A stretch of 64,000 nucleotides of DNA. Source: Ahniellaceae bacterium (GTDB taxonomy: Bacteria; Pseudomonadota; Gammaproteobacteria; Xanthomonadales; Ahniellaceae). Positions 618-60,330 of this stretch are shown here, one piece after another; the first letter of the stretch is position 1, and the number at the start of each line of letters is the position of its first letter. Location of the stretch: positions 43,256 to 107,255 of the forward strand of contig JBGAPI010000013.1 in NCBI GenBank assembly GCA_044221335.1, in the 5' to 3' direction. Made by a program: the position numbers and the translations under genes. The notes beneath the pieces were generated by a model. The model did no database searches. It saw only the letters and a list, made by a program, of their open reading frames with translations, and was not told where the DNA came from.

Positions 618-1496
618 ATGCTGTCGATCGAGAATCTGTCCAAGACCTACGCCAACGGCGTGCGTGCGCTGACGAACGTCAGCCTCACGATCCCGCGCGG
701 CCTGTTCGGCCTGCTCGGCCCGAACGGCGCCGGCAAGTCGACGCTGATGCGCACGATCGCGACCCTGCAGGACGCCGACGGCGGCAGCATCCGCTTCGAC
801 GGCATCGACGTGCTCGCCGACAAGGACGCGCTGCGCCGCACCCTGGGCTACCTGCCGCAGGACTTCGGCGTCTACCCCAAGGTCAGCGCCGAGGAGCTGC
901 TCAACCACCTCGCGATGCTGAAGGGCGTGGTGAACCGCGGCGAGCGCCGCGACACCGTCGAGGCACTGCTGCGCCAGACCAACCTGTGGGAGGTCCGGAA
1001 GCGCAAGCTCGGTACCTACTCGGGCGGCATGCGCCAGCGCTTCGGCATCGCGCAGGCGCTGATCGGCAACCCGAAGCTCGTGATCGTGGACGAGCCGACC
1101 GCCGGCCTCGACCCGGAGGAGCGCAACCGCTTTCACAACCTGCTGGCCGAGATCGGCGAGAACGTCGTGGTCATCCTGTCGACCCACATCGTCGACGACG
1201 TCACGGAGCTTTGTCCGACGATGGCGATGATCTGCGCCGGCCGCGTGCTGCTGTCGGGCAAGCCGGCGGACGCGATCGAGGCGCTGGGATCGAAGGTCTG
1301 GCGCGCGCGGATCCGGCGCGCCGAACTCGCCGAGGCCGGACAGAAGTACGTCGTGCTGCAGTCCAGGATGATCGGCGGCGAGCCGGTGATCCACGTGTAC
1401 AGCGAGACCCGGCCGGAGCCGCGCTTCGAGCCGATCGCCGCGGACCTCGAGGACGTCTACTTCCACCAGTTGCGCCAGCACCGGGCGGCGGCCTGA
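618..1496 (+). CDS. ABC transporter ATP-binding protein
   Basis: Walker A GPNGAGKST, ABC signature LSGGMRQR, Walker B VIVDEPTAGLD, H-loop STHIV. 292 aa. Confidence 0.9.
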   Translation: MLSIENLSKTYANGVRALTNVSLTIPRGLFGLLGPNGAGKSTLMRTIATLQDADGGSIRFDGIDVLADKDALRRTLGYLPQDFGVYPKVSAEELLNHLAMLKGVVNRGERRDTVEALLRQTNLWEVRKRKLGTYSGGMRQRFGIAQALIGNPKLVIVDEPTAGLDPEERNRFHNLLAEIGENVVVILSTHIVDDVTELCPTMAMICAGRVLLSGKPADAIEALGSKVWRARIRRAELAEAGQKYVVLQSRMIGGEPVIHVYSETRPEPRFEPIAADLEDVYFHQLRQHRAAA

Positions 1497-1499
1497 GCC

Positions 1500-4400
1500 A
1501 TGCGCCTGTTCCGGGAATTCTTCCGTTTCGAACTCGGCTTCCAGCTGCGCACGCCGCTGCTGTGGATCGTCACCGTGGCGCTGTCGGCGCTGGCGATGAC
1601 GGCGATCGCCACCGACCTCGTCACCGTCGGCAGCGCGATCGGCAACGTGCATCGCAACGCGCCGTCGGTCATCCTGAACTTCCTCGGCACCTTCTCGGCG
1701 CTGGGCATGTTCGTCGTGGTCAGCTTCGTCGCCAGCGGCCTGCTGCGCGACCACGAGCTCGGTACCGCGGAGCTGTTCTTCGCGACACCGATGAACAAGC
1801 GCGACTACCTGTTCGGCCGGATGGCGGGCGGCCTCGCCGCCTGCCTGGTGATCTTCCTCGGCATCGCGATCGGCATGTCCTTCGGCCAGACCCTGCCGGG
1901 CGTCGAGGCCGAGCGCCTCGGTCCCTATCCGCTGGCGGCCTACGGCTGGGGCTTCGCGTTCATCGTGATCCCCAATCTCCTGTTCATGACCGCGTTGATG
2001 GGCCTGCTCGCCGCGACCACCCGCAGCCTGCTGGTCACCTATCTCGGCGTGATCGGATTCTTCGTGTTGTGGTCGGTCAGCGGCGCGATCACCCGCGACC
2101 TCGACAACGTCTGGGTCGCGACGCTGATCGAGCCCTTCGGGCTGCGCGCGCTGTCCCGGACCATGCGCTACTGGTCGGCCGAGGAGCGCAACACCGGGCT
2201 GCCGGCGCTGTCGGGCTACCTGCTCGCCAACCGCGGACTCTGGCTCGCGATCTCGATCGCCCTGCTGGCCGCGACCTACGCGCGCTTCCAGCCGATGCGC
2301 GCCGACAGCGGCAGCGCGGCCAAGGGCAAGACCGCCGCACCGACCGCGCCTGCCGCGGTCGCCGCCGTGGCGACGACGACGCCGGCCGCGGTGCCCGCGG
2401 TGAACGCCCGTTCCGACCGCGGCGCCCGGCTCGCGCAGCTCGCGCACCTCGCCCGCAGCGAGACGATGGCCGTCCTCGCCGGCATCCCGTTCCGGGTGAT
2501 GCTCGCGTTCGGCGTGATGAACCTCGTCGGCAGCGCCTCGTTCTCCGACGTGCTGTTCGGCACCAAGGTGTTTCCGGTCACCCACCTGATGCTGGACACG
2601 CTGTCCGGCACCTACAACTTCCTGCTCTGGATCATCCTCACCTTCTACGCGGGCGAACTCGTGTTCCGCGAACGCGCGGCGAAGCTGGGCGAGGTGATCG
2701 ACGCGACGCCGATCCCGAACTGGCTGCCGCTGGCGGCGAAGTACATCGCGCTCACCGCCGTGATCGGCTGCTTCCTCGCGGTCGGCGCGGTCACCTGCAT
2801 GCTGTTCCAGCTGGCGAAGGGCTATACCTTCCTGGAACCGGCCGTCTACCTGGAGTCGCTCGCGCTCGATGCCTGGGTGTTCGCGCTGTACGCCGCGCTG
2901 GCGCTCGCCATCCAGGTGTTCTGCAACAACAAGTTCCTCGGCTACGCGGTGGTGATCGGCGTGCTGATCGTGCAGGCCGTGCTGCCGGTGCTGCACCTCG
3001 AGCACAACCTGCTGTTCTACGCGAGCTCGCCGCCGGCGCCGTACTCGGACATGAACGGCTTCGGCCACTTCCTTGCCGGCAAGCTGTGGTTCGACCTGCA
3101 CTGGACGCTGCTGGCCGCGATCCTGCTGGTCCTGGCGGCGCTGTTCTGGGTGCGCGGCAGCGACCCGTCGCGGCAGGACCGCAGCCGCGAGGCGCGCCGT
3201 CGCCTCACCGGCCTGCCGCGCCTCGCGCTCGCGGTCGCGGGGCTGGCCTTCGTCGCCAGCGCCGGCTGGATCTACTACAACACCTGCGTCCGGAACGACT
3301 TCGCCTCCAGCAGTCGGCGGCTCGACGACCAGGCCGACTACGAGAGGTCCTACGCCCGCTACGCCGGACTGGCGCAGCCCAGGATCACCGCGGTCAGCGC
3401 CGACGTCGACCTGCATCCCCATGAACGCCGCGCCGAGATCCGCGCGCGCTGGCACCTGGTGAACAAGTCGGGGCAGTCGATCGGCGCGTTCCACCTGACG
3501 CTGCCGGCCGAGGTCAAGGTCGATCGTCTCGACTTCGCGCCGCACCAGGACACCCTGATCGACGAGCGCCTGCAGTACCGCATCTACACGCTGGACACGC
3601 CGATGGCGCCGGGCGCGGAAATGGACATGGCGCTCGACCTGCACATCGCCAACGTCGGCTTCGGCAACGACTTGGGCTCGACGGCGCTGGTCGACAACGG
3701 CAGCTTCTTCAACAGCGGGCAGTCCTTCCCGGCGTTCGGCTACCAGCCGCGCTTCGAGATCGACGATCGCAACGAGCGCCGCAAGCGCGGCCTCGGCGAG
3801 CCGCGCCGGATGCCGAAGCTCGAGGACGTGGCGGCGCGCGCGAACCACTACATCGCCCGCGACGCCGACTGGATCGACTTCGAGACCACGGTGTCGACCG
3901 AGCCGGACCAGATCGCGCTGGCACCGGGATATCTGATCCGCGAGTGGAGCGAGAACGGTCGCCGCTACTTCCACTACAAGATGGACCGCCCGATGCTGCC
4001 GTTCTTCGCCTACCTGTCCGCGCACTGGGAAGTGAAGCGCGATCGCTGGCACGACCTCCCGATCGAGATCTACTACGACGCCAAGCATCCCTACAACGTC
4101 GACCGGATGATCGAAGGCGTGAAGGATTCGCTCGACTACACCGCGGCGAACTTCACCCCCTACCAGCACAGGCAGGTGCGGATCGTCGAATTCCCGCGCT
4201 ACGAGCGCTTCGCGCAGAGCTTCGCCAACACCATCCCGTTCTCCGAGTCGATCGGCTTCATCGCCGACCTGCGCGATCCGGAGCAGGTGGACTACGTCTA
4301 CTACGTGACCGCCCACGAGGTCGCCCACCAGTGGTGGGCGCACCAGGTGATCGGCGCGAACCTGCAGGGCGCCACCGTGATGAGCGAATCGCTGGCGCAG

Positions 4401-5108
4401 TACACCGCGCAGCAGGTGATGGCCCACCACTACGGCCCCGGGCAGATGCGCAAGTTCCTGAAGTACGAGCTCGACAACTACCTGTCCAGCCGCGGCGCCG
4501 AGCGGGTCGAGGAGCTGCCGCTGCTCCGGGTCGAGAACCAGCCCTACATCCACTACCGCAAAGGCTCGCTGGTGTTCTACCGCCTGGCGGACGAGATCGG
4601 CGAGGACCGGCTCAACCGCGCCCTGAAGCGCTACCTCGAGGACAAGGGCTTCCAGCAGCCGCCCTACACGACCTCGCAGGAGCTCGTCGACTACATCCGC
4701 GCCGAGGCGCCGGCGGACAAGCAGGCCCTGATCACCGACCTGTTCGAGAAGATCGCGTTCTACGACAACCGGGTCACCGCGGCGACGGCGAAGAAGCGCC
4801 CGGACGGAAAGTACGACGTCGAGATGAGCCTGCACGTCGACAAGGTCTACGCGGACGGCCGCGGCGTGGAGTCCGCCGGGACGGTCGACGACGACATCGA
4901 GATCGGCGCCTTCGCCCGCGCGCCTGGCGCCGGCGAGTCGACGGAGAAGGTGCTGTCGCTCGCGCGGCGGCACTTCGACGCCCGCGGCGATTCGACGCTC
5001 ACGCTGACCGTCGACGAGCTGCCCTACGAGGTCGGCATCGATCCGTACAACAAGTTCATCGATCGGGTGTCGACGGACAACCGCAAGCGGGTGACGCTGG
5101 TGCAGTAG
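1500..5108 (+). CDS. ABC-2 type permease fused to M1-family (aminopeptidase N-like) zinc metallopeptidase domain
   Basis: About 12 predicted TM helices in the first ~560 aa. C-terminal half carries the gluzincin motif HEVAHQWW...(18 aa)...SE (HEXXH-X18-E) and a GAMEN-like region. Start codon 4 nt after the ABC ATPase stop, so the two genes form an operon. Confidence 0.8.
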   Translation: MRLFREFFRFELGFQLRTPLLWIVTVALSALAMTAIATDLVTVGSAIGNVHRNAPSVILNFLGTFSALGMFVVVSFVASGLLRDHELGTAELFFATPMNKRDYLFGRMAGGLAACLVIFLGIAIGMSFGQTLPGVEAERLGPYPLAAYGWGFAFIVIPNLLFMTALMGLLAATTRSLLVTYLGVIGFFVLWSVSGAITRDLDNVWVATLIEPFGLRALSRTMRYWSAEERNTGLPALSGYLLANRGLWLAISIALLAATYARFQPMRADSGSAAKGKTAAPTAPAAVAAVATTTPAAVPAVNARSDRGARLAQLAHLARSETMAVLAGIPFRVMLAFGVMNLVGSASFSDVLFGTKVFPVTHLMLDTLSGTYNFLLWIILTFYAGELVFRERAAKLGEVIDATPIPNWLPLAAKYIALTAVIGCFLAVGAVTCMLFQLAKGYTFLEPAVYLESLALDAWVFALYAALALAIQVFCNNKFLGYAVVIGVLIVQAVLPVLHLEHNLLFYASSPPAPYSDMNGFGHFLAGKLWFDLHWTLLAAILLVLAALFWVRGSDPSRQDRSREARRRLTGLPRLALAVAGLAFVASAGWIYYNTCVRNDFASSSRRLDDQADYERSYARYAGLAQPRITAVSADVDLHPHERRAEIRARWHLVNKSGQSIGAFHLTLPAEVKVDRLDFAPHQDTLIDERLQYRIYTLDTPMAPGAEMDMALDLHIANVGFGNDLGSTALVDNGSFFNSGQSFPAFGYQPRFEIDDRNERRKRGLGEPRRMPKLEDVAARANHYIARDADWIDFETTVSTEPDQIALAPGYLIREWSENGRRYFHYKMDRPMLPFFAYLSAHWEVKRDRWHDLPIEIYYDAKHPYNVDRMIEGVKDSLDYTAANFTPYQHRQVRIVEFPRYERFAQSFANTIPFSESIGFIADLRDPEQVDYVYYVTAHEVAHQWWAHQVIGANLQGATVMSESLAQYTAQQVMAHHYGPGQMRKFLKYELDNYLSSRGAERVEELPLLRVENQPYIHYRKGSLVFYRLADEIGEDRLNRALKRYLEDKGFQQPPYTTSQELVDYIRAEAPADKQALITDLFEKIAFYDNRVTAATAKKRPDGKYDVEMSLHVDKVYADGRGVESAGTVDDDIEIGAFARAPGAGESTEKVLSLARRHFDARGDSTLTLTVDELPYEVGIDPYNKFIDRVSTDNRKRVTLVQ

Positions 5109-44419: not shown

Positions 44420-44455
44420 AAAAAAAGAGCCGCGCGGCGTCCTGCCGCGCGGCTC
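44420..44455 (-). terminator. Rho-independent terminator (minus strand) downstream of the SPFH gene
   Basis: On the minus strand: gagccgcgcggcaggacgccgcgcggctc followed by ttttttt. A second GC hairpin ccctctcccccgacgagtcgggggagaggg lies at 44493-44524. Confidence 0.65.
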
Positions 44456-44578: not shown

Positions 44579-45739
44579 CTAGGCACTGATCTTCACCAGA
44601 TCCTTCAGCACACCGTCGAGTCCGCCGAAGACGGTGAGCTTGTCGATCTTGTCGGTGACCTTCTCCAGGGTCTCCAGTTCCTTCAGGCGCAGCAGCACCG
44701 GGCTGTCTTCCATCAGCTTCGCGGTGTTGAGCAGCGACCGGGTCGCCGCGGTCTCCTCGCGCCGACGGATCACGTTCGCCTGCGCCGCCTTCTCGGCCTG
44801 GACCACCTGGTTCAGGATCTCCTTCATCTCGCCGGGCAGGATCAGGTCCTTCACGCCCGCGCCGACGAGTTCGATGCCGTAGTCCGCCAGCTTTTCCGAC
44901 GCGACCTCGAACACGGCCGCGTCGAGCTCGCCCTTGTTGCCGAGCAGGGTGTCGAGCAGCCGGGTGCCGATCGCCTGGCGCAGGCCGAACTGCAGCTCGC
45001 GGTACAGCGCGTCCTTGAAGTCGCCGAGCCGGGAACGCACCCGCACCGGGTCGACGATGCGGTAGCTCGCCGACAGGTTGGCACGCAGGCTGACCTTGTC
45101 CTTGGTCAGGATTTCCTGGCCGGAGACCTCGATCGCCTGGACGCGCAGGTCGACAAGCTCGATCGCGACGTTGCGGCCGAACTTCCAGTAGCCGTAGACA
45201 CCCGGCTCCAGGACGCGCTCGATGCGGCCGTTGACCGTCAGCAGGCCGACGCTCGCGACCGGCACCTCGCGGGACACCACCGCCGCCTGCACTTCCCGGA
45301 CCAGCGCCGGCGCGGTGCCCGCCACCGGCGTCGCCAGCACCCGGAGCACCGGCTCCGGCACGGCGTAGCCGAGGCCGAGGTCGACCCGCTTGACCTCGAC
45401 CGCCACCAGGCCCTTCCAGTAGACCTGGCGCGCGCCCGGGGCGAGCAGCGCCGCGAGCCGGCCGTCCTTGTAGACGAGACCGACCTCGTCGGCGCCGATC
45501 GCGACGAGCTCGAGGAAGCCCTCGACCAGCGACGGGTTCTCGCGCACGTAGGCCTCCGCGTTGGCGAAGCGCGCCTCCGGCACCGCGATATCCTCGGTGA
45601 CGATGCTGCTGCGGCCGGACTTCCAGTAGACGCCCGGAACCAGGATGGCGACCAGGCGTCCGTCGCGGAACTCGAGGCCGCGCTGGTACTGGGCGATGAC
45701 GACACGCTTGAAGCCGAACATGACACGCTCTCCTTGCAC
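44579..45739 (-). CDS. SPFH/band-7 (slipin-like) domain protein
   Basis: Band-7 core region (QEILTKDKVSLRANLSASYRIVDPVR...) and C-terminal coiled coil. 386 aa. Confidence 0.75.
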   Translation of the reverse strand: MQGERVMFGFKRVVIAQYQRGLEFRDGRLVAILVPGVYWKSGRSSIVTEDIAVPEARFANAEAYVRENPSLVEGFLELVAIGADEVGLVYKDGRLAALLAPGARQVYWKGLVAVEVKRVDLGLGYAVPEPVLRVLATPVAGTAPALVREVQAAVVSREVPVASVGLLTVNGRIERVLEPGVYGYWKFGRNVAIELVDLRVQAIEVSGQEILTKDKVSLRANLSASYRIVDPVRVRSRLGDFKDALYRELQFGLRQAIGTRLLDTLLGNKGELDAAVFEVASEKLADYGIELVGAGVKDLILPGEMKEILNQVVQAEKAAQANVIRRREETAATRSLLNTAKLMEDSPVLLRLKELETLEKVTDKIDKLTVFGGLDGVLKDLVKISA

Positions 45740-46142
45740 CTCGACTGGGTTGTCGCGTCCACGCGGGACGCCGCGCGCCGGAGGCTCGGCGCGCCGCTTT
45801 CATGGCGCTGCCGGCGCGTCGCGCCGGCAGCGGATCCTTCGAGAGGTCGGGCCCGTCCCACGCCGCCGCGCGGAAGACGACTCCGCAGGTCCGGCGACGA
45901 TGAGGTTCGGCAGGGTGCCGACGCCGCAGTCGCGCGATCCGGAGACCGCTCGACCGGGGACGTCCCACCATGCCGGCGCCCATCGCCGGCGAGCCCGCGA
46001 CCGATCGTCCGCAAGGCGCGTCGACGCCGTGCCGCATCCGGGCGCCGGCGGACCGGAGTCCGACGCCGCTGGGACCGCACCGGGAGGAAGCCCGATGGAG
46101 GATGTCGCCACCCTCCGGTGTCGCCTAACGCAGCTTTCCAAG

Positions 46143-46216
46143 CTGTTGGAGTGGGATTCGAACCCACGACTGCTGGAGTACAAGTCCAGTGCTCTAACCG
46201 ACTGAGCTATCCATGG
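46143..46216 (-). tRNA. tRNA-Thr(TGT)-like; the acceptor stem does not pair in its outer three positions
   Basis: On the minus strand: CCATGGA-TA-GCTC-AGTCGGTTA-GAGC-A-CTGGA-CTTGTAC-TCCAG-CAGTC-GTGGG-TTCGAAT-CCCAC-TCCAACA-G. D-arm, anticodon arm (anticodon TGT) and T-arm are canonical. Only 4 of 7 acceptor base pairs form: positions 1-3 read CCA where TGT would be needed. Confidence 0.6.
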
Positions 46217-46217
46217 G

Positions 46218-46290
46218 CGTCCCCGGATGGAATCGAACCACCGACCCCCGGCTCCGCGAGCCGGTGCTCTCTCCGCTGAGCCACGGGGAC
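46218..46290 (-). tRNA. tRNA with anticodon loop TCGCGGA (formal anticodon GCG, Arg; C33 is atypical). Isotype uncertain
   Basis: GTCCCCG-TG-GCTC-AGCGGAGA-GAGC-A-CCGGC-TCGCGGA-GCCGG-GGGTC-GGTGG-TTCGATT-CCATC-CGGGGAC-G. Perfect 7-bp acceptor stem. Only 1 nt separates it from the neighbouring tRNA. Confidence 0.7.
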
Positions 46291-46594
46291 GTACTGCATG
46301 CCGCCTTCCGCCACCGGTACGCGGCCACCCAGCGGGCACCGCGCCAGACGGCCCGGGTTTCCCCAAGACCGTTATCGCTGGCGAACGAAAGGACAGACCT
46401 GCCCGTCGACGCGATTAATTGCGCCTTGATTGGTTTAATTAGTTCGGCCGCTCGCCGAATTACGGCGAGGCCCTCGCCCGGCCCGGGCACCGCAACGTTC
46501 GCGCGAAGACCACGCATGTCGTGGCACGACGCGACGGCCCTCCGTCACGTCATCGCTGCGGTGCCCGGGCATCGTCGACCCGACGACGCGCTTT

Positions 46595-46826
46595 CGGCGC
46601 GCCGGAAAAGCAAAACCCCCGGAGACTCTCGCCTCCAGGGGTCTTGTACCCTCGGGAGGCCTGCTCGCGCAGGCCTCGTTCGCACGTGGCCTACGTCATT
46701 CCGGCAAGCTCGACAGCATGCCGGCGCGCGTTTGCGGCGCGGCGTTCCGGCGGCTGTCCTGCACGTGGAGGAAGTAAGTATTCACGTCGTTGTTCCCGAA
46801 TTCCGTAATGACTGCCGTTCGGCAGG
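46595..46826 (-). ncRNA. Candidate small RNA (about 230 nt) bounded by a sigma70-like promoter and an intrinsic terminator
   Basis: Minus-strand promoter: TTGACG (+46855-46860), 16-bp spacer, TATAGT (+46833-46838). Transcript contains hairpins ctgccgaacggcag and aggcctgcgcgagcaggcct plus a CUUCCUCC stretch. Terminator: 9-bp GC stem and UUUUGCUUUU (+46594-46636). No plausible ORF. Confidence 0.35.
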
Positions 46827-46832
46827 GCGCGA

Positions 46833-46860
46833 ACTATACGCCCGAATTCCGGCGCGTCAA
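46833..46860 (-). promoter_or_regulatory. Sigma70-type promoter (-35 TTGACG / 16 bp / -10 TATAGT) on the minus strand
   Basis: Reverse complement of 46833-46860 reads TTGACGcgccggaattcgggcgTATAGT. Lies in an unusually AT-rich noncoding stretch. Confidence 0.5.
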
Positions 46861-46911
46861 TAGTTTCGTCGCGGTTCCGACCGGCGGTAATTTATCCGGC
46901 GATGAACGCAT

Positions 46912-47151
46912 GCGTATGGAGCGTAGGGCGCGCACTGCGCGCCGTCGCCCCGGTCCCGCGGTCGATCGGCGCCAGGCCGATGGGTTTCGCGATGGCGGGC
47001 AAGGCCCGCGCTACTCGTCACCCGACAGCCACGCGTATGGAGCGTAGGGCGCGCACTGCGCGCCGTCGCCCCAGTCCTGCGGTCGATCGGCGCCAGGCCG
47101 ATGGGTTTCGCGATGGCGGGCAAGGCCCGCGCTACTCGTCACCCGACAGCA
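46912..47151. repeat. Tandem direct duplication, 2 x 120 bp (about 97% identity), containing REP3 units and the last 6 codons of the adjacent gene
   Basis: Unit gcgtatggagcgtagggcgcgcactgcgcgccgtcgcccc(g/a)gtcc(c/t)gcggtcgatcggcgccaggccgatgggtttcgcgatggcgggcaaggcccgcgctactcgtcacccgacagc. The second copy overlaps the 3' end of the AIM24 gene. Confidence 0.85.
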
Positions 47152-60253: not shown

Positions 60254-60330
60254 GCGTCCGTAGCTCAGTTGGATAGAGCACCAGGCTTCGAACCTGGTGG
60301 TCGGGGGTTCGAGTCCCTCCGGGCGCGCCA
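60254..60330 (+). tRNA. tRNA-Arg (anticodon TCG)
   Basis: GCGTCCG-TA-GCTC-AGTTGGATA-GAGC-A-CCAGG-CTTCGAA-CCTGG-TGGTC-GGGGG-TTCGAGT-CCCTC-CGGGCGC-G-CCA. Full cloverleaf with encoded CCA. Confidence 0.85.

Follow-up and report, generated by a model that had tools for sequence, protein, structure and literature searches.

A conserved leader with a short reading frame and alternative hairpins, a candidate transcription attenuator, precedes tRNA-like genes and a Band-7 gene in an Ahniellaceae bacterium

In a 64,000-nt stretch of contig JBGAPI010000013.1 from an Ahniellaceae bacterium (hereafter, the window), a segment of the minus strand within an 840-bp gap between genes was originally predicted to encode a novel small RNA (sRNA). 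We found that positions 46860-46606 are very probably a real and conserved transcription unit. We propose that this unit is a transcription attenuator that depends on an upstream open reading frame (uORF) and that heads a block of structured RNA, tRNA or tRNA-like genes, and a Band-7 gene; from sequence analysis, we give this a probability of about 0.5. The "sRNA" would then be the terminated leader. The original prediction was right that this is a genuine, conserved transcription unit outside of Rfam, but the unit does not appear to be simply non-coding, and its middle, where a seed site would be expected, is its least conserved part.

As we envision it, a sigma70-type promoter would start an RNA that carries a 5' hairpin and an open reading frame (ORF) of 29 codons. 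The stop codon of the ORF lies inside a segment, S1, that is complementary to S2, which is the 5' arm of the next hairpin (hairpin 1, or S2:S3). If S1 is not covered by a ribosome, then S1:S2 would form, leaving S3 and the linker that follows it to pair with the terminator's 5' arm (S4). With this antiterminator in place, RNA polymerase would be able to read on through the structured RNA and the tRNA-like genes and into the Band-7 gene. If the ORF is instead translated efficiently to its stop, the terminating ribosome would mask S1, hairpin 1 and the terminator (S4:S5) would form, and transcription would end at about 46606-46610, giving an RNA of ~220 nt. The net effect would be that the block is switched on when translation is compromised. 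That the ORF is translated, that polymerase reads through, and which way the regulation runs are inferred.

Anatomy and conservation of the leader

The promoter lies exactly where the original prediction placed it, at 46860-46833 on the minus strand (all features of the leader are on this strand). It comprises a -35 hexamer (TTGACG, 46855-46860), a 16-nt spacer, and a -10 hexamer (TATAGT, 46833-46838), and it agrees with the consensus at 10 of 12 positions. It is the sole sigma70-like site in the window with at least 9 of 12 matching positions, according to both a promoter scanner (which covered 60 kb of the window) and a separate scan of the whole window. Because 22% of dinucleotide shuffles of the whole window have a match of at least 10/12 somewhere, the hexamers by themselves are modest evidence. 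By our inference, what goes beyond chance is the position of the promoter inside the 840-bp gap (roughly 0.23 x 840/64000). The -35 hexamer is invariant in all of the Lysobacterales-type homologs that we describe below (it is TTGACT in the more distant homolog L041), and the -10 hexamer is TATAGT or TATATT. From the promoter spacing only, transcription is predicted to start near 46826.

The unit ends at an intrinsic terminator (46606-46641), which was identified by a scan for hairpins with T tracts and by folding. Its hairpin (S4:S5, 46641-46616) is CCCCUGGAGGC-GAGA-GUCUCCGGGGG, which can be extended to 16 bp, and it is followed by UUUUGCUUUU at 46615-46606. The original prediction had also noticed this terminator, but its range of 46594-46636 was shifted by about 5-12 nt. 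In our own scan of both strands of the window, we found six T-rich 10-mers, of which three are 3' of a strong hairpin; with a folding energy of -29.3 kcal/mol, this terminator is the second best of those three. (The built-in scanner missed it because the stem extends into the U tract.) The RNA made by this self-contained unit, from promoter to terminator, would be about 220 nt long, which agrees with the ~230 nt that had been predicted. A 233-nt RNA folds at -113 kcal/mol (z = -4.3 relative to shuffles). Both of the hairpins that were originally quoted are exact. The gap had been described as AT-rich, which is an overstatement: its GC content is 0.62-0.69, as compared to 0.69 for the window, so it is mildly GC-poor.

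It had also been stated that the gap has no credible ORF. We found a 29-codon ORF at 46696-46785, with a GTG start codon and a TGA stop codon, that encodes MNTYFLHVQDSRRNAAPQTRAGMLSSLPE; its GC content at the first, second, and third codon positions (GC1, GC2, and GC3) is 0.62, 0.48, and 0.86. Upstream of it is a 5'-proximal hairpin (CUGCCGAACGGCAG, 46812-46825), and every homolog has a start-proximal hairpin of differing sequence. S1 (ACGUAGGCC, 46688-46696) overlaps the stop codon, and its complement is the 5' arm of hairpin 1 (a pairing that we examined with a duplex test, see below). Hairpin 1, which is supported by folding and by the family alignment, is at 46656-46677 and has the sequence GAGGCCUGC-GCGA-GCAGGCCUC. 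The linker is CCGAGGGUACAAGA (46642-46655). Its GGGU and the GCCUCC at the 3' end of hairpin 1 can together form the S3:S4 antiterminator with the terminator's 5' arm.

We found the first relatives of this unit by searching contigs for a DNA pattern that is common to the window and to sX12, a known sRNA from Xanthomonas. Two contigs from metagenome-assembled genomes (MAGs) of Lysobacterales, L010 and L020, are homologous to the unit in the window and not to sX12. Alignment of these to the window shows conservation of the promoter, hairpin 1, and the terminator and divergence in the middle. A second region of similarity between the window and L010 is a remnant of the 3' end of a Band-7 gene, which linked the unit to the Band-7 gene that is downstream of it in the window. 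Among contigs that encode homologs of this Band-7 protein (63-73% identity), we found five further lineages with the unit. Altogether, it is present in at least seven other lineages, which comprise Lysobacterales-type contigs and a Candidatus Competibacter genome (L041). Loss of the sequence or of the promoter hexamers in relatives would have counted against the original prediction, and both are kept there. Indeed, every relative that we found retains the hexamers, hairpin 1, and the terminator; the module of the 3' hairpin and the terminator is the most conserved part and the centre is the least conserved. We built a covariance model from 4 sequences and used it to score the remaining loci: other members, including the window (58.4 bits), score 54-58 bits (E ~1e-15), and L041 scores 25.6 bits (E = 6e-6). 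The anatomy of L041 is as in the window and its sequence is almost entirely different.

The order of the parts is the same in every homolog: 5' hairpin, ORF, stop codon, hairpin 1, short linker, and terminator. Furthermore, the relatives place the unit consistently. Their gene order is leuS-lptE-holA-nadD, a gap of 1.2-1.8 kb, and then the Band-7 gene, which is followed by rsfS-rlmH either directly or past one gene on the opposite strand (so the block is flanked by nadD and rsfS). In each of these relatives, the unit is at the start of the gap between nadD and the Band-7 gene and has the sole sigma70-like promoter there. It is upstream of, and co-oriented with, the tRNA or tRNA-like genes and the Band-7 gene, and this is strict in six lineages. 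None of holA, nadD, rsfS, or rlmH are found in the window, which implies that the block, from the leader through the tRNA-like genes to Band-7, is at a different genomic location there and has moved as a whole. Thus, the parts of the leader, their order, its two alternative pairing schemes (described below), and its linkage to Band-7 are all conserved. In all loci, an intrinsic terminator lies between the leader ORF and the co-oriented downstream genes, as expected for an attenuator. This anatomy fits a cis-acting uORF and attenuator at least as well as it fits a trans-acting sRNA.

All homologs have an ORF of 29-34 codons with aligned starts (AUGAAC, or GUGAAU in the window). The homologs stop at UAG; the window stops at a UGA that is 2 nt earlier, and it retains the conserved UAG within S1. 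The distance from the stop codon to hairpin 1 is 13-19 nt across homologs, and the frame is kept across length classes of 29, 30, and 34 codons. GC3 exceeds GC1, which exceeds GC2, in the ORFs of all seven Lysobacterales-type sequences. L029 and L032 differ by about 20% in this tract, and the ORF is free of indels, as compared to several in the 5' untranslated region. The ORFs of L010, L020, and L028 differ by just three substitutions, all of them synonymous and at third positions, and in the clade of L010, L037, and L038, third positions are enriched (15 of 28 changes). The 34-residue ORF of L037 was also predicted by a public gene caller. Because the start, the stop, and the frame are kept while the peptide is hardly conserved, the data suggest that it is the act of translation that would matter rather than the peptide.

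Two mutually exclusive folds

MAFFT alignments misaligned hairpin 1, so we relied on alignments that were fitted by covariance models instead. In the terminator state (hairpin 1 and the terminator), 98% of alignment cells across the family are paired, with three compensatory pairs; controls in which the pairing was slid along the alignment reached at most 59%. For hairpin 1 itself, 95.7% of cells are paired, with a compensatory change from U-A to C-G, and its stem has an entirely different sequence in L041. The terminator is paired in 100% of cells, and two of its pairs are compensatory and three one-sided.

For the alternative state, we folded a stretch of nascent RNA that begins 12 nt before the stop codon and runs through the terminator's 5' arm (which excludes S5). 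In all nine sequences and in L041, the minimum free energy (MFE) fold combines S1:S2 with S3:S4. The S3:S4 antiterminator joins the 3' arm released from hairpin 1, together with the linker, to the entire 5' arm of the terminator. When we forbade pairing for the first 25 nt, to mimic a terminating ribosome, hairpin 1 returned and the terminator arm was largely freed. L041 shows an equivalent switch, with a 14-bp S1:S2 of unrelated sequence. By eye, L035 also shows a three-way covariation (GGGC / GCCCC / GGGGC) between the linker and the 5' and 3' arms of the terminator.

We compared the S1:S2 duplex directly to 1000 shuffles. In the window, its energy is -16.5 kcal/mol (p = 0.043), and the duplex is stronger than those of shuffled sequences in all nine sequences (p ≤ 0.01 in five of them and 0.04-0.11 in the others). 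In other words, the leader has a conserved antiterminator pairing that excludes the terminator state and relies on a segment open to masking by a ribosome, which is what an attenuator requires, with caveats about shuffles and about fitted alignments that are explained below.

Evidence against an attenuator, and alternative explanations

Several observations weigh against the attenuator. The alternative state pairs 94% of cells and has eight compensatory pairs, but the alignment used (A8) was fitted to the structure being tested. When the 25 nt around S1 were shuffled, an antiterminator-type pairing was still present in the MFE fold of 33-66% of the shuffles; this MFE-based test is not specific, which is why we replaced it with the duplex test. 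More broadly, promiscuous pairing of GC-rich sequences inflates such predictions, which need to be read with care. Lineages C and D have a C.A mismatch in the outer helix of S3:S4, and the MFE fold of the full-length RNA always includes the strong terminator. As for the ORF, a frame of this length is open in about 50% of shuffles, which is the chance expectation; no clear Shine-Dalgarno sequence precedes it; and it has neither a run of regulatory codons nor a defined stalling peptide, as the peptides are unalike between lineages. Between lineages, the peptide is barely alignable: the window, L039, clade B, and clades C and D share MN.. and short patches. In clades C and D, substitutions are overwhelmingly nonsynonymous, without enrichment at third positions, and nucleotides in the ORF's 3' half are kept with no synonymous changes among them. 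Some of the "synonymous" changes in the ORF double, by eye, as compensatory pairs in an RNA hairpin. A non-sigma70 promoter may also exist downstream of the terminator. Finally, lineage B (L010, L020, and L028) has lost the tRNAs, and its Band-7 gene has been reduced to about 30 C-terminal codons (TIDKPTVFGGLEGVL, at 1300-1400 on the minus strand of L010, and also in L020 and L028), yet it retains the unit, which has diverged by ~3.6% (about 10 differences in 277 nt) as compared to 11% for its surroundings. The retention of the unit in lineage B fits an autonomous function, either as an sRNA or as a small protein, or else control of the rsfS-rlmH genes that follow.

If the unit were an autonomous, trans-acting sRNA (possibly with a dual function), then the terminated transcript of ~220 nt would be the product and its position near Band-7 would be mere co-localisation. 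The unit does have its own promoter and a strong terminator, a fold with a z-score of -4.3, and a 3' hairpin and terminator module that is its most conserved part, and it has been kept in lineage B. It is doubtful, but conceivable, that the conserved hairpin and U-tailed terminator would be a module for stability or for binding a chaperone. Nevertheless, we consider an autonomous sRNA to be unlikely. There is no conserved single-stranded seed: the centre is the most variable part, and the CUUCCUCC stretch that was highlighted in the original prediction is present but, among the relatives, is common only to L039. (Similarly, GGAGGAAG on the plus strand and the TTG-start ORF that follows it are not conserved.) An autonomous sRNA also leaves unexplained the conserved frame and codon-position composition of the ORF, the S1:S2 and S3:S4 pairings over the stop codon and the terminator arm, and the linkage and orientation relative to the Band-7 block, which are strict in six lineages. 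Alternatively, the unit would be a small-protein gene, with a functional peptide of 29-34 residues (for instance, a partner or regulator of Band-7), and with the hairpin and terminator as merely its 3' end. The presence of the ORF in all homologs, the ranking of GC content across codon positions everywhere, the third-position changes in the two groups of close relatives, and the gene call in L037 all favor this explanation. We think that it is improbable as well, given how poorly the peptide aligns, the nonsynonymous changes and the conservation of nucleotides rather than codons in clades C and D, the missing Shine-Dalgarno sequence, and the absence of NCBIfam matches for any of three ORF peptides. 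Furthermore, conservation is higher in the non-coding 3' module than in the peptide.

No Rfam family matches the unit at threshold, a check that had been proposed with the original prediction. The sX12 family of sRNAs from Xanthomonas (RF02231) does match 46606-46677 over the full length of its model (25.9 bits, E = 0.011 in a search of 341 nt). Both RNAs have a GC-rich hairpin that begins with GAGGCCUGC and contain GAGGCCUGC...GCAGGCC, a terminator with CCCUGG...CCGGGG, and CUUUU, and the hosts of sX12 belong to the same order as the window's relatives (Lysobacterales/Xanthomonadales). It is nevertheless very improbable that the unit is a divergent sX12, and we consider this effectively refuted by the gathering score, the loop, the promoter, the reciprocal model, and the genomic context. 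The gathering score of the family is 106 bits, and the E value of the match rises to 0.07 in a search of 2.2 kb and extrapolates to about 2 at the scale of the whole window. In true sX12s (from 13 Xanthomonas species and 4 Luteimonas-type genomes), the hairpin has a 24-nt loop with CCUCGUCGAA, as compared to 4 nt in the window; the large-loop motif is complete (CAUCCUCGUCGAAAGG) in all 13 Xanthomonas species and has a CCUCGUCGA core in the 4 Luteimonas-type genomes, and it is absent from the window. The sX12 promoter, GGAAC(T/C)TT-N15/16-GTCA, is directly upstream of GAGGCC; this is absent here, and the promoter of our unit is about 150 nt further upstream. Our family covariance model gives just 10-19 bits (noise) for sX12 loci and 54-120 bits for members of the family, and among the matches listed for L010, L029, L032, and L035 (in a 30-kb search), none is to sX12 at E ≤ 1. 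The bases that sX12 and the window have in common are not conserved within the unit's family (L037-L039 and L041), and the genomic context of sX12 is different (it is beside atpI in L022). Also, sX12 is a 78-nt RNA with a large conserved loop, a promoter immediately upstream, and no ORF (Schmidtke et al. 2012, PMC3300014).

Our pattern search did provide some information about sX12 itself. It identified true sX12 in 13 Xanthomonas species and sX12-like sequences in four Luteimonas or gammaproteobacterial genomes, along with three probable chance matches. sX12 was originally reported only from xanthomonads with the hrp type III secretion system, where it is induced by HrpX (PMC3300014). sX12-like genes also exist outside of Xanthomonas, in Luteimonas. 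The GGAAC..GTCA motif precedes sX12 at L006-L009, L011-L014, L018, L019, L022, and L024 (Xanthomonas) and at L015, L017, L023, and L026 (Luteimonas and gammaproteobacterial MAGs), and it resembles an extracytoplasmic-stress (sigmaE-type) promoter.

We also considered whether the unit derives from a repeat or a mobile element. Its hairpins occur just once in the window, and collections of phages and plasmids match the tRNA part only, so we rejected this idea.

The downstream block and known systems

The original prediction described a tRNA pair near the gap and noted that sRNAs and regulatory RNAs are often located beside tRNA integration hotspots. One of the pair is a tRNA-Arg(GCG)-like gene at 46214-46291 on the minus strand (like the rest of the block), which was identified by ARAGORN and by the Rfam tRNA model. 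Its anticodon loop is UCGCGGA (with C33 and G37) and it is followed by CCC rather than CCA. The other, at 46147-46213, is a tRNA-like element that abuts it, with the anticodon UGU and a broken acceptor stem of 4 bp; it is not called by ARAGORN, and the Rfam tRNA model matches it at 59.4 bits but only across positions 4-67. Its homolog in the relatives is their second tRNA-like element. Neither gene looks like a standard decoding tRNA. Because the pair belongs to a module with the Band-7 gene, and is an integral and co-oriented part of a conserved block, we do not view it as an integration hotspot. (Elsewhere in the window, at 60254-60330 on the plus strand, is a tRNA-Arg(UCG).) Weak matches to the YrlA Y RNA-like model (RF02553; 24 bits in the window and 33 bits in L035, versus a gathering score of 69) do not indicate membership. 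YrlA is similar in having a tRNA-like domain and in being found at RNA-repair loci, but the matches concern the neighboring tRNA-like genes and not the leader, and we did not see a gene for Rsr/Ro60 beside the block.

The pair is at 46147-46291 in the window, and the corresponding pairs are at 3912-4062 and 4491-4635 in L029, 684-834 in L032, 4416-4565 in L035, 3449-3598 in L037, and 3450-3600 in L038. The scaffold is shared across lineages and the anticodons differ: the first gene is Arg-ACG, Arg-GCG, Asp-GUC, or Ile-GAU, and the second is Ile-GAU, Leu-CAG, Thr-UGU, Lys-UUU, or Thr-AGU. We compared the codons of the leader ORF to these anticodons by eye and found no consistent relation. L029 and L032 are 99.7% identical over 2.4 kb, and three of their nine differences are in the 7-nt anticodon loop of the second element (from GAU to CAG). 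Such variation between nearly identical strains is unusual and is possibly more surprising than the leader. In both L029 and L032, the entire module that contains the tRNAs is tandemly duplicated.

Indeed, the whole 0.9-1.5 kb between the leader terminator and the start of the Band-7 gene appears, by eye, to be structured RNA, with conserved loops and differing stems (at 45740-46146 and 46292-46605 in the window, 3500-5000 in L029, 3985-5000 in L035, and 3070-4000 in L037). For example, a hairpin with a CGAGUG loop is found in both L029 and L032 with different stems. Rfam has no match to the structured RNA in this region. Just after the terminator, at 46390-46605, is a structured domain with a 26-nt inverted repeat (46481-46506 / 46545-46570), which was found by a repeat scan; by eye, relatives have matching long-range helices of different sequence, and lineage B has kept this domain despite losing the tRNAs. 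A conserved structured element (CAGCGAUA..CUGGCGCGG.GCCCG.UGGG..CCGCGUACCG) is present in alignments immediately before the tRNA pair, at 46292-46385, and in L037 and L038 it shows, by eye, a compensatory change from G-C to A-U. We rejected the idea that CTGGCGCGG.GCCCG, which lies upstream of the tRNA, holds a sigma54-type promoter, because the spacing is wrong for one; by eye, this segment shows compensation of the kind expected in a helix.

The Band-7/SPFH (slipin) gene, at 44579-45721, encodes 380 amino acids and matches PF01145 (E = 1e-29). Database names for its homologs are "slipin family protein" and, for one with 55% identity, PA4582-like; an NCBIfam scan of the protein gave sub-threshold matches to HflK and HflC only. 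The block ends at a strong intrinsic terminator (UCUUUUUUUG, -31 kcal/mol) at 44427-44455, which was found by a terminator scan. In the window, the block is flanked by an AIM24-family gene upstream and by a divergently oriented LysR-family gene downstream, and a PADLOC scan had no match for the Band-7 or AIM24 proteins. The closest homologs of the AIM24/TIGR00266 gene (about 75% identity) are in DUF533-AIM24 loci without the gap, the tRNA, or any similarity to this region, so this gene was not informative about synteny. Just upstream of the leader promoter is a 121-bp tandem duplication (46909-47029 / 47030-47150, 98% identical) that contains the final 19 nt of the AIM24/TIGR00266 gene and 102 nt beyond it. 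This may be the junction where the block inserted.

Two other observations concern the relatives. RsfS in L010 (487-1506, minus strand), L037 (5302-5880), and L039 (7010-7639) has a long N-terminal extension that is rich in Lys, Ala, and Pro, and is 182-254 residues long instead of the usual 110 or so. Also, public annotations include antisense ORFs of 214-380 residues, without Pfam domains, over the region of the leader and the tRNA-like genes (minus strand of L029, 3231-4370; L030, 460-1602; L035, 3642-4493; and L038, 2755-3399). These are probably spurious calls in GC-rich non-coding DNA.

A "band 7-associated tRNA", or b7a-tRNA, has been predicted beside Band-7 proteins, often along with the RNA ligase RtcB; the passage on these in 10.1101/312249, citing Burroughs & Aravind 2016, states that the adjacent ligase is found "in certain bacteria" and that b7a-tRNA was never validated experimentally. 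The tRNA gene at 46214-46291 fits that passage's description: a tRNA-like gene adjoins and is co-oriented with a PA4582-type Band-7 gene, and precedes it, in the window and in L029-L042. RtcB is not adjacent to the block in the window, which is a difference from the b7a/RtcB loci, and we saw RtcB only in L042, where a PA4582-like Band-7 homolog has a tRNA before it and RtcB two genes later. (In L041, too, a tRNA lies upstream of the Band-7 gene.) In L042, a dense array of 14 tRNAs with an HNH gene (812-3676) is followed by tRNA-Ile (4560-4633), Band-7, one gene, and RtcB. Farther along are helix-turn-helix and Fic genes, and the locus has the look of a mobile or conflict-related island.

The RNA-repair operons rtcBA and rsr-yrlBA-rtcBA, which are related in function, are regulated by RtcR (PMC7790460). 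These systems resemble the block in the theme of responding to damaged RNAs of translation, and through the 55%-identical homolog with RtcB two genes later. They differ in that RtcR is a sigma54 activator and we propose attenuation for the leader.

The device itself, a leader ORF with alternative hairpins and a terminator, is of a known kind, and it is the cargo, which includes a Band-7 protein linked to RNA repair, that is unusual. Leader-peptide attenuators of the trpL, hisL, and pheL type, as well as antibiotic-responsive uORF attenuators, also have a short leader ORF, mutually exclusive stem-loops that overlap the end of the ORF, and a terminator before co-oriented genes. In the classical attenuators, the position of the ribosome decides the fold, as we propose here. 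The classical attenuators have four segments and our leader has five. Furthermore, our leader lacks a run of regulatory codons, and its predicted default without a ribosome is read-through, so that translation to the stop would favor termination. The genes under its control would be a structured RNA, tRNA or tRNA-like genes, and a Band-7 protein, instead of a biosynthetic operon. In the literature that was accessible to us, there is no description of a leader with a promoter, uORF, and terminator before a b7a module, and the family is not in Rfam.

These findings have implications for annotation, as present annotations either omit the leader, the structured RNA, and the tRNA-like genes or cover them with the antisense ORF calls. 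The variation in anticodon loops between 99.7%-identical strains merits a separate study. The Band-7/b7a-tRNA module has been a bioinformatic prediction without a known function or regulation, and the leader adds a concrete regulatory input that can be mutated, at the start codon, the position of the stop, and the S1:S2 and S3:S4 pairings; the attenuator predicts that the block is induced when translation fails. More speculatively, and with rather long odds, the leader may sense translational capacity, so that stalling of ribosomes (for example, due to damage to tRNAs by an anticodon nuclease or another toxin) would turn on the tRNA, the tRNA-like RNAs, and Band-7. If so, this would be a branch of the response to RNA damage that is controlled by attenuation and is independent of RtcR, in which the variable tRNA-like RNAs might be spare tRNAs, decoys, or sensors.

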